A stretch of DNA of 63,036 nt, filler included, from an uncultured archaeon (lineage in GTDB: Archaea; Nanobdellota; Nanobdellia; Woesearchaeales; CAIVOO01): NCBI GenBank assembly GCA_903842985.1. It is 5 parts of 5 records of this genome, joined end to end, with 100 filler letters (N's around TTAATTAATTAA, not from the genome) between each part and the next. Parts side by side here need not be neighbours in the genome. Positions count along the whole stretch, not along the records: positions 5,958 to 32,003 come from CAIMOB010000009.1; 4 more parts are not named here. One strand, written 5' to 3'. Below, piece by piece: positions 12,001-15,000 of the stretch (positions within the stretch are counted from its first letter, which is position 1; each line of letters begins with the position of its first letter). Made by a program: the position numbers.

Positions 12001-15000
12001 TCCTCGATGAATGGGTCAAGCTCTTCGATAACTATTGCCTGGCAAACGTTTTTCAGGAAAGATTTTACCAATTTTTCGGGGAAAGGGTAGCACAATCCAA
12101 TTTTCAGAATTGGAAGCTTCAGGTTTAGCTTTTCAAGCACCTCCTTCACATACTCGTAAGTCACGCCTGATGTGATGATGCCAGTCATGCCTTCTGATTT
12201 TTCAATAAAATTAAGTTTTGAGCTTTCGCTCAGCTTGCCAATCTCAGAAATTTTCTCGAGAATATTTTTGTGAAGCTCAACTGTCCTTGCAGCACCAAGC
12301 TTAAATTCAAATTTCTTGAATTTCCCCTTGGCTGGCTTGATTATTAGGCCAAAATCAACCAATGACCTTGAATAGCAGACCCTTGTGGACATTCTCAGTA
12401 TGACTGGAATCTTGTACTGCCAGGCGATTTTGAACGCCTCCTTTGTCATCTCCTTTGCTTCCTGGCTGTTGCTCGGTTCAAGAATAGGAATCTTGCCCAG
12501 CTTTGAAAACCATCTTGAGTCCTGCTCTGTCTGGATGGAGCTGAAACAGCCTGGGTCGTCTGTTACGACAACAACAAGCGGGCAGGAAAGGTATGCAAGC
12601 GGAAGAAGTGAATCAAGCGCAACATTTAATCCATAGTGCTTTACGCTTACTATTGATTTTACTCCAGAAAAAGCAGCTCCTGCTGCCGCCTCAAGCGCGA
12701 TTTTCTCGTTTACAGACCACTCAAAATAAATTCCTGTCTCTTTTGCAACTTCGGCAAACACCTCTCCAATTTCTGTTGCAGGTGTTCCTGGATAAGAAAA
12801 AGCGCATCCGATGCCTGACTCGAGCGCGCCTCTTACAACTCCGTCGTTTCCGCTAAGAAAGCCTCTTTTTTTGTTTAGTATTTCCATTCTTACCTGACTG
12901 ATTTCTTTTTATATTTATATAAATCTTTTCTTTTAAGATAGATAAGCATGCCGATTCCAACCATCGCCATAGGGATGCAGAGCCACTGGCCTGTTGTCAG
13001 CCCAAGGAACATGCCATCAGGCTCCTTGACAAACTCTATGAAAAACCTTATCACGCCGTACATTGAAATAAATGACCAGAAAATAAATCCAGGAGGAATT
13101 TTCCTGTCTTTCAAAATCCACAGGACACCGAAGATGAAAAAATTCTTAAATGACTCATAAAACTGCGACGGATGTCTGTAGCCTTCAACACCTGGGAACT
13201 TGACTGCCCATGGAACATCAGTTATCCTGCCGTAAACCTCTCCGTTAAGAAAATTTCCAATCCTGCCAAGACCGAGACCGATTGCAGCCGGGATAACAAC
13301 GAGGTCTGCAATGTCATAAAACTTAATCTTCTTTCTTCTGCAGAAAATCCAGGCTGCAATTAAAATTCCGGCCAGCCCGCCGTGAAATGACAGACCGCCG
13401 TGCCATACTGCGGGCATCTCAAGCGGGTTTGCAAGATAATACTTAAGCCCGTAGAAAACAATGTAGAAAATCCTTGCTCCAACAACCAACCCAATCAAGA
13501 TGTAAAAAAGCAGGTCAGCAACATCCTCCTTTGTAATCTTCAGCTTTCTCTTCTTTGCAAGATAAGAAACCATGAAATAAGTTATTATGAATCCAATGAT
13601 GTAAATAAGTCCATAGTACCTTATCTCAAAAGGTCCCAAAGTAAACAATGTTGGATCTATTTTGCTTTCAAACATCTTTTTTTGTAGTCTTTGATTGCTT
13701 CCTTTAGCGCATCAACTGCCAGAACAGAGCAGTGTATCTTATTTTCAGGCAGACCGCCAAGCTGCTTCACAACCTTCTCCTTTGTAAGCTTCTCTGCCTC
13801 TGAGAGCTTTTTGCCTTTTGCCATTTCAGTTGTTATGGAAGCGGATGAAATTGCTGCTGCGCAGCCGAGTGTCTTAAACTTTATCCCAGAAATCCTGTTG
13901 TCTTTCACTTTTATGAAAACTTCTGTTGTGTCGCCGCAGACAGGGTTCCTTATTTTCCCGACTCCGTCTGCATTCTTTATCTCTCCGACATTCTTTGGGT
14001 TCTTGAACAGCTGCATTACTTTTTTCGAGTACATCAAAGCCTCCTGATAAGCTTCTCAATGGGGCTTATCCTCCTTAATTTCTGCAATATTTTTGGAAGA
14101 AGCGAAAGCACCCTGTCAATCTCCTCTTCTGTTGTGTATTTGCTTATGCTGAACCTTAAAGAGCCATGCGCCTCCTCTGGCTTCAGCCCTAATGCAAGCA
14201 GAACATGGCTTGGCTCGAGTGAAGCGGATGAGCAGGCAGAGCCTGTTGAAACGCAGATTCCGCTCGAATCAAGATAGGAGCCAATTGCCTCGCCTTCAAC
14301 TCCTGCAAATGAAAAGTTTGCATTGTTGCACAGCCTGTTTTTCATCGGGCCGTTGAGCCTGGTGTTTGGAATTTTCAGAACCCCTTCGATAAGCCTGTCC
14401 CTCAGCTTCTCCATCTTTTTGGTGTTTGCAAAATTTGCAATCTTCACTGACTCTGCAAACCCGACAATTCCCGGAATGTTCTCTGTCCCGCCTCTCCTGT
14501 ATTTTTCCTGTCCGCCGCCGTGCGCAACAGGAGTTATCTTTATTCCGCTCCTGATGTAAAGCGCGCCCACGCCCTTTGGCCCATGAATTTTGTGCGCGTT
14601 TAATGTTACAAGGTCAAGATGCTGGTTAGCGACATTAATCGGGACTTTTGTGTAGCTCTGGCATGCATCTGTGTGGAAAAGAACCTTGTGCTTCCTGCAG
14701 ATTTTTCCAAGCTCCTCAAGATTCTGTATTGTGCCTATCTCATTGTTTCCGTGAATAACAGAGAAAAGAACAGTCTGCTTTGTTATTGCCTTCTCCAGTT
14801 CCTTTGGATTTACAAATCCTTCCCTGTCAACATTAAGGTAAGTTATTTTATATCCCTTGGTTTCGAGCCACTTGCTCGCATTCATGATGCATGCGTGCTC
14901 GATTTTTGTTGTTATTATGTGATTTCCTTTTTCTTTGTTCGCGAACAAAACGCCTTTCAGCGCAAGGTTGTTGCTTTCTGTCCCGCCAGATGTGAATACA

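Follow-up and report, generated by a model that had tools for sequence, protein, structure and literature searches.

The closest described systems are the Lgt, LspA and Lit lipoprotein enzymes of Firmicutes, for which 5AZB, 6RYO and 7B0O serve as structural references, and the archaeal AliA/AliB system (arCOG02177/02178, DUF63). E. coli Lgt is described as touching ester oxygens through Y26 and R143 (PMC4728403, also the source of the Lgt residue roles used below), and Lit as shifting the sn-2 acyl chain by attack on the ester carbonyl (PMC8275575, the source of the Lit residue roles). Hong et al. 2025 (PMC12462473) report, in the available text, that no archaeal Lgt or Lsp homologues were identified and that several lipoprotein-rich genomes are without AliA and AliB. 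In the tables of that paper 12–60 lipoproteins are predicted for each of the seven Woesearchaeota (7/7), none of which has AliA or AliB; AliA is listed for N. equitans and Nanobsidianus; and Pacearchaeota have 1–11 predicted lipoproteins with AliA in 1 of 23 listed rows (25 in total). The available text of a 2026 follow-up (PMC13631571) does not mention DPANN.

The initial annotation had described a bona fide bacterial-type lipoprotein pathway in an uncultured archaeon of the Woesearchaeales, and had raised the question of whether the supplements of DPANN surveys list the enzyme families without comment. They do: Table S3 of Castelle et al. 2021 (PMC8204110, Woesearchaeota module 15) lists all three, giving LGT in 83%, Peptidase_A8 in 83%, DUF1461 (now Lit) in 71% and DUF63 in 0% of 196 Woesearchaeota, and the Lit family in 19%, Lgt in 5%, LspA in 0% and DUF63 in 89% of 37 Aenigmarchaeota. 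Bare occurrence of the families is less novel because of that supplement. The rows stand there uncommented, and, as far as the available text goes, the main text never mentions "diacylglycer" or "signal peptidase", DUF1461 is not read as Lit, and no link is drawn to substrates, AliA or lipid type; bacterial hosts are proposed in the same paper from lytic transglycosylases. According to the Hong and Castelle tables, Pacearchaeota are mostly without either system, and since they do have lipoproteins a further lipidation route may exist. Text searches of the literature, their scope being papers other than subscription ones and supplements other than those of bioRxiv, returned no paper that links DPANN or Woesearchaeota to Lgt; NCBI names Lgt in four of five relatives looked up.

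The Lgt, LspA and Lit proteins described here belong to bacterial families that are already known, and the novelty lies in the combination of a complete bacterial maturation route, an AliA apparently displaced across the order, conserved core substrates, and a chemical handle on membrane type and host. We consider it quite likely that the lineage uses the bacterial route, and not the archaeal one through AliA, for the maturation of its surface lipoproteins, and for one large order the Lgt-LspA set is a direct and testable answer to the question of how archaea that are rich in lipoproteins and lack AliA lipidate them.

The lgt, lspA and lit genes

The lgt gene lies within the window, by which we mean the whole 63,036-nucleotide stretch of DNA analysed (Table 1). 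Its product matches Pfam LGT (PF01790) with 261.7 bits over model positions 1–240 of 240, passes the NCBIfam TIGR00544 lgt cut-off (223.6 against 118.9) and aligns with E. coli Lgt 5AZB at a phmmer E of 4.3e-48. It retains Y21 (E. coli Y26), H98 (H103), Y206, R210 (R239) and E214, together with the signature G137-R138-x-G-N-F-L-N-G-E146-x-x-G149 that corresponds to E. coli G142–G154 and includes R143 and E151; the position of E. coli R246 is Lys in this genome. In an alignment of 45 archaeal Lgt sequences Y26, N146 and R239 are present in 45/45 and H103, R143 and E151 in 44/45, counts that, like those for LspA and Lit below, come from the best-scoring loci only and are biased to strong matches. 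From its sequence this Lgt would transfer diacylglyceryl from phosphatidylglycerol to the lipobox Cys. The earlier description of a full-length Lgt with its catalytic residues was thus borne out by profile, sequence alignment and motifs alike.

Table 1. Positions of the pathway genes, their neighbours and candidate substrates. Plain coordinates count along the window; those with a contig name count along that contig.
Feature	Position	Strand	Remarks
lgt, prolipoprotein diacylglyceryl transferase	12890..13675 (also C9:6933-7718)	-	ORF from ATG to stop, 261 aa
NifU-like and aminotransferase class V genes (the latter cysteine desulfurase-like, name inferred)	13657..15272	-	directly upstream of lgt; outside the pathway
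2-oxoacid:ferredoxin oxidoreductase subunits	10549..12887	-	start 2 bases past the lgt stop; neighbours only
TBP and MCM	20795..23404	+	lgt contig; archaeal context marker
PolD DP2, DP1-like subunit and Cdc6	25599..31885	-	lgt contig; archaeal context marker
85-aa predicted lipoprotein	42068..42325	-	LTGC, Cys18; candidate Lgt substrate on another contig piece; sole lipobox protein in the window
lspA	C54:3457-3891	-	144 aa; outside the window, beside aIF-1A
lit (candidate)	C56:6102-6827	-	241 aa; outside the window
Cassette of three tandem paralogous lipoproteins	C40:4936-7852		outside the window

The context of lgt and lspA is archaeal, as had been proposed: the former shares its contig with TBP, MCM, PolD and Cdc6, and also with the gene for RNase P p30, and the latter adjoins aIF-1A. 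There is no pathway operon in this genome, where lgt, lspA and lit occupy separate contigs. The neighbours of lgt (43 loci) and of lit (29 loci) are not conserved across relatives, the NifU-like and aminotransferase class V genes included, and in one relative, G014, lgt lies next to lit. Several genomes (G077, G103, G050, G014 and G045) carry extra, more divergent Lgt paralogues, with up to four matches in G077. Two Lgt matches fall within open frames of about 460 amino acids (G045 and G004) and are possibly fusions, and at G033:C27:18358-19341 Lgt occurs in three pieces inside one 366-aa open frame, apparently split by long insertions. We also note that the window encodes, at 15618-18653 on the plus strand, a 1011-aa multi-pass surface protein with repeated Ig-like domains.

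LspA (family PF01252) scores 90.1 against TIGR00077 (cut-off 73.95) and matches S. aureus LspA 6RYO with an E of 3e-16. Among 29 related loci its gene lies beside aIF-1A in nine and beside a lineage-specific small gene in at least 11, and these conserved neighbours fit a long residence in the lineage. We take the catalytic pair to be the V-D-F and FNxAD aspartates (D113 and D127 here), and these presumed catalytic residues are kept in 30/30 aligned rows. The initial annotation had named GNxxDR and FNxAD as the catalytic motifs; the gene stands, both motifs occur in it and all three aspartates are present, but the role given to GNxxDR does not agree with that pair.

The third protein, put forward earlier as a bacterial-type Lit, is recognised as such by family, pairwise match and fold. 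It matches Pfam PF07314 with 68 bits (cut-off 24, model 2–163) and B. cereus Lit with a phmmer E of 7e-8 at an identity of only about 20%, and falls below the NCBIfam cut-offs (40.1 against 74.8 for TIGR01906 and 32.4 against 400 for NF051877); it is thus a divergent member of the family, outside the NCBI equivalog. A structure model built from a 27-row alignment has a pLDDT of 90.3, and a fold search with it returned B. cereus Lit 7B0O (TM 0.76/0.84, rmsd 2.4) and nothing else under an E of 0.8; the match contains the four transmembrane helices with a cap that are expected of Lit. Equivalents of H85, V89, F145, H153, F157 and F180 are kept in 27/27 rows, and the His85/His153 dyad and Phe157 correspond to H108, H180 and F184 of this protein, H85 having been mapped by motif spacing. 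As a Lit, it would be expected to carry the sn-2 acyl chain of an ester-linked substrate over to the N terminus. Near lit and two lipoprotein genes is a gene for a CHASE2 plus adenylate/guanylate cyclase membrane protein, a bacterial-type sensor (G000:C56:9524-11452, L270).

We are highly confident that the three enzymes are active, and infer the following order of maturation steps. A Sec-exported precursor (SecY and SecD/F are encoded in the genome) would be held by its signal peptide. A phosphatidylglycerol-type lipid would then donate a diradylglyceryl group, which Lgt would attach to the lipobox Cys, and LspA would cut off the signal peptide before that Cys. In an accessory step that is missing from some near-complete genomes, Lit would shift the sn-2 chain onto the amino group thus freed, leaving the lipoprotein in its lyso form. 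The set resembles that of low-GC Firmicutes in having all three families at full length with their catalytic residues, in its L-[AT]-G-C lipoboxes, and in that no Lnt-type CN hydrolase (nitrilase) domain was matched in any of the five genomes tried (5/5). It differs in its archaeal host, in the scattering of its genes among archaeal housekeeping genes and in having no visible route to phosphatidylglycerol. With AliA/AliB (PMC12462473) it would share its task, lipidation of archaeal Sec substrates at the lipobox Cys, but the enzyme family is another one, and the archaeal anchor, as described there, is archaeol, which Lit chemistry could not move.

Distribution in the order and the search for AliA

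In a sample of 61 genomes of the order, each from a different family, Lgt is present in 55 and LspA in 56, and Lit was detected in 48, in 46 of them over cut-off; 51 genomes have both Lgt and LspA, 39 have the full set, and every genome (61/61) has at least one of the three. The six genomes without Lgt are assemblies of 80–170 contigs. Lgt and LspA are both present in the single-contig genomes G016 and G025, and as Lit is missing from G025 we regard it as accessory. A phylum sample has Lgt in 66 of 71 genomes, including 11 of 14 from other orders, and Lit in seven of those 14, all seven with Lgt. The family counts given earlier for LGT, Peptidase_A8 and Lit among relatives agree in proportion with these samples.

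Whether an AliA homologue is also present had been left as a question, and the search was run with the DUF63 profile (PF01889), AliA being identified with that family by the labels on alignments in the supplement of Hong et al. It matched none of the 61 genomes of the order, neither this one nor its 60 relatives, and did match three archaeal controls. Among the 14 genomes of other orders it matched one, G104, weakly (30 bits), a 0.5-Mb genome without Lgt or Lit. The presence of three bacterial enzymes without the archaeal one hints at membranes with bacterial-type lipids.

Candidate lipoprotein substrates

Lipoboxes were detected with our own regular-expression rule on the N-termini of 956 genes from our own gene caller. 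The first rule gave 18 of the 956. A stricter one gave 17, with Gly at -1 in 15 of them, where counts for other residues at +1 lead one to expect 1.1. A relaxed one listed 27, about 21 of which were judged lipobox-like by eye; the figure of about 20 lipobox proteins in the initial annotation is confirmed. Thirteen of the 18 have no Pfam family, and the others contain beta-helix, PD40, DJ-1, CARDB or cupredoxin domains.

The core substrates would include the cassette of three Ig-like lipoproteins, which appears to be order-wide: homologues were found in 59 of the 61 genomes, usually in three copies. By our rule 77 of 80 full-length homologues from 30 loci of other genomes have a lipobox, and two of the three misses have the Cys after a variant motif; at 20–36% identity the lipobox Cys is invariant in 53/53 aligned rows. 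A one-query search did not find the cassette in three Lgt-less genomes, but it did not find it in the Lgt-bearing G079 either, so that the Lgt-less genomes are a weak control. Its proteins match no Pfam family and no PDB sequence, and the mature protein is beta-rich with matches to Ig-like sandwiches only (best Z 10.4 over about 100 residues), none of them specific; its Atlas matches are unnamed Nanobdellota clusters. The cassette here follows a 764-aa multi-pass membrane protein that ends in a lytic-transglycosylase domain (G000:C40:4936-10143, L249; homologues L294–L323), and the two together are a candidate host-contact apparatus. Three SLT lytic-transglycosylase domains are encoded in the genome (C39:111-515, C4:23170-23484 and C40:8026-8379).

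Lipid donor, origin and competing readings

Full-length GGGP synthase was found in 0 of the 61 genomes of the order, with which PMC8421398 agrees in its available text; PcrB gave weak partial matches of at most 25 bits in 11 of 61, the six best of which match His_biosynth better, and UbiA was found in 0 of five genomes tried. PlsY is over cut-off in two of 61 and PlsC-family acyltransferases occur in 33. The present genome, which is 92.65% complete, gave no match to gpsA, plsC, plsY or a CDP-alcohol transferase, and no route to a phosphatidylglycerol donor or a lipid backbone was found in it. Three relatives have gpsA-plsC-plsC runs (L337 in G049, L338 in G023 and L339 in G015), seen among the ten picked loci described below. 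One run is accompanied by a fatty acid desaturase gene and archaeal RadA, another by a FabG-like fusion and archaeal uS2, and through such runs archaea might reach phosphatidic acid without PlsB or PlsY.

CarS-like genes occur in 30 of the 61 genomes, and that of this genome exceeds the NCBIfam CDP-archaeol synthase cut-off (160 against 148); A. fulgidus CarS, according to the available text of a review, prefers archaeal DGGGP over phosphatidic acid. CarS and PlsC are both present in 18 genomes, one is present alone in 12 and 15, respectively, and neither in 16, which is no association beyond chance (p 0.44). Ten loci were chosen for proximity to CarS or PlsC and are a picked set rather than a rate; in these, CarS-like genes cluster with plsC, MGDG synthase, CDP-alcohol transferases, patatin or phosphatidylserine decarboxylase. 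At L332 (G038), L333 (G009) and L334 (G050) the CarS-like gene is clustered with plsC, PHP-domain and radical SAM genes; MGDG synthase, CDP-alcohol transferases, dxr and patatin accompany them in varying combination. CarS might thus take the place of CdsA. In this genome a DUF212 (divergent PAP2) gene is joined to the CarS gene (G000:C23:2755-3728, L226), and the same pair occurs in G022 with psd and a CDP-alcohol transferase.

We lean towards an ester-linked, bacterial-type lipid as the donor, which this organism would import and the relatives with gpsA-plsC-plsC might make themselves; an ether anchor should not be able to serve Lit, because Lit attacks an sn-2 ester carbonyl. It is also conceivable that Lgt and LspA work with an archaeal ether lipid (archaetidylglycerol) obtained from an archaeal host while Lit is idle or does another job, for example acylating from a different donor. 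The frequency of CarS-like genes, the equivalog score here and the DGGGP preference of the characterised enzyme all fit that account, as do the archaeal hosts that the literature gives for cultivated DPANN; the Lit family also occurs in some AliA-bearing Aenigmarchaeota, and a Lit-like protein can therefore sit beside AliA. However, the two His and the aromatic cage of Lit, invariant in all 27 rows, are hard to square with disuse, the two ester-oxygen contacts of E. coli Lgt, Y26 and R143, are both kept, AliA is retained in Nanoarchaeales that have archaeal hosts, and in several relatives the CarS-like genes lie with plsC, MGDG synthase or psd (at loci picked for CarS or PlsC); on balance we judge an ether donor unlikely. 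The enzymes might instead strip or remodel the lipoproteins of a bacterial host or prey rather than mature the cell's own proteins, and the three lytic-transglycosylase domains do suggest contact with bacterial envelopes. Lgt, LspA and Lit are polytopic membrane enzymes, however, and the organism's own lipoboxes, for which no AliA was found, are strongly selected, which makes such a role very improbable.

With an ester-linked donor as the preferred reading, we put forward, as a tentative hypothesis that we hold slightly short of even confidence, that Woesearchaeales and allied Nanobdellota orders crossed the lipid divide to membranes of bacterial-type ester phospholipids, by way of gpsA-plsC-plsC and a repurposed CarS in some and from bacterial hosts in others like this one, the swap of AliA for Lgt-LspA-Lit being the order-wide footprint. 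Hints of bacterial lipids in Woesearchaeota from other genes are given in the available text of PMC11868695, PMC10936187 and PMC6431249. If the hypothesis of a crossed lipid divide is true, the presence of AliA or of Lgt in a DPANN genome could indicate whether its host is archaeal or bacterial. As Lit needs an ester bond, both the membrane composition of Woesearchaeales and the question of a bacterial host come down to bench tests on three cloned genes.

Contamination of the metagenome bin with bacterial DNA, or recent and non-functional transfers, is a rival account of lgt, lspA and lit, and several features of the data would suit it: the assembly is in 60 contigs, no read-derived contig spans lgt and TBP/MCM, the DNA contigs (four runs, one study) covering the stretch in short pieces, and the GC3 of lspA, 0.33, is 1.7 SD below the genome mean. 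Yet lgt shares its assembled contig with TBP, MCM, PolD and Cdc6 and is typical in GC3 and codon score, the linkage of lspA to aIF-1A is conserved, the genes are present in the single-contig G016 and G025, and their nearest relatives are archaeal. We rejected this explanation as exceedingly improbable, the order-wide distribution in effect refuting it.

The nearest relatives of this Lgt are archaeal. An Lgt tree of 84 rows (26 of 110 having been dropped as near-redundant bacterial rows plus one duplicate) is poorly resolved, with one starred branch uniting six archaeal with 11 bacterial rows; it does not group the archaeal rows as one clade and needs three changes of the archaeal label, though a single archaeal clade is not rejected (p-AU 0.227). 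No row is titled Firmicute, Chloroflexota or Patescibacteria, and for this reason and the poor resolution we name no donor lineage. Three close Lgt loci (L105, L112 and L114) come from records titled "uncultured Methanosarcinales archaeon", which nest among rows of the same order, are 1.0–1.2 Mb in size and have no DUF63; they are probably mislabelled genomes of this group.
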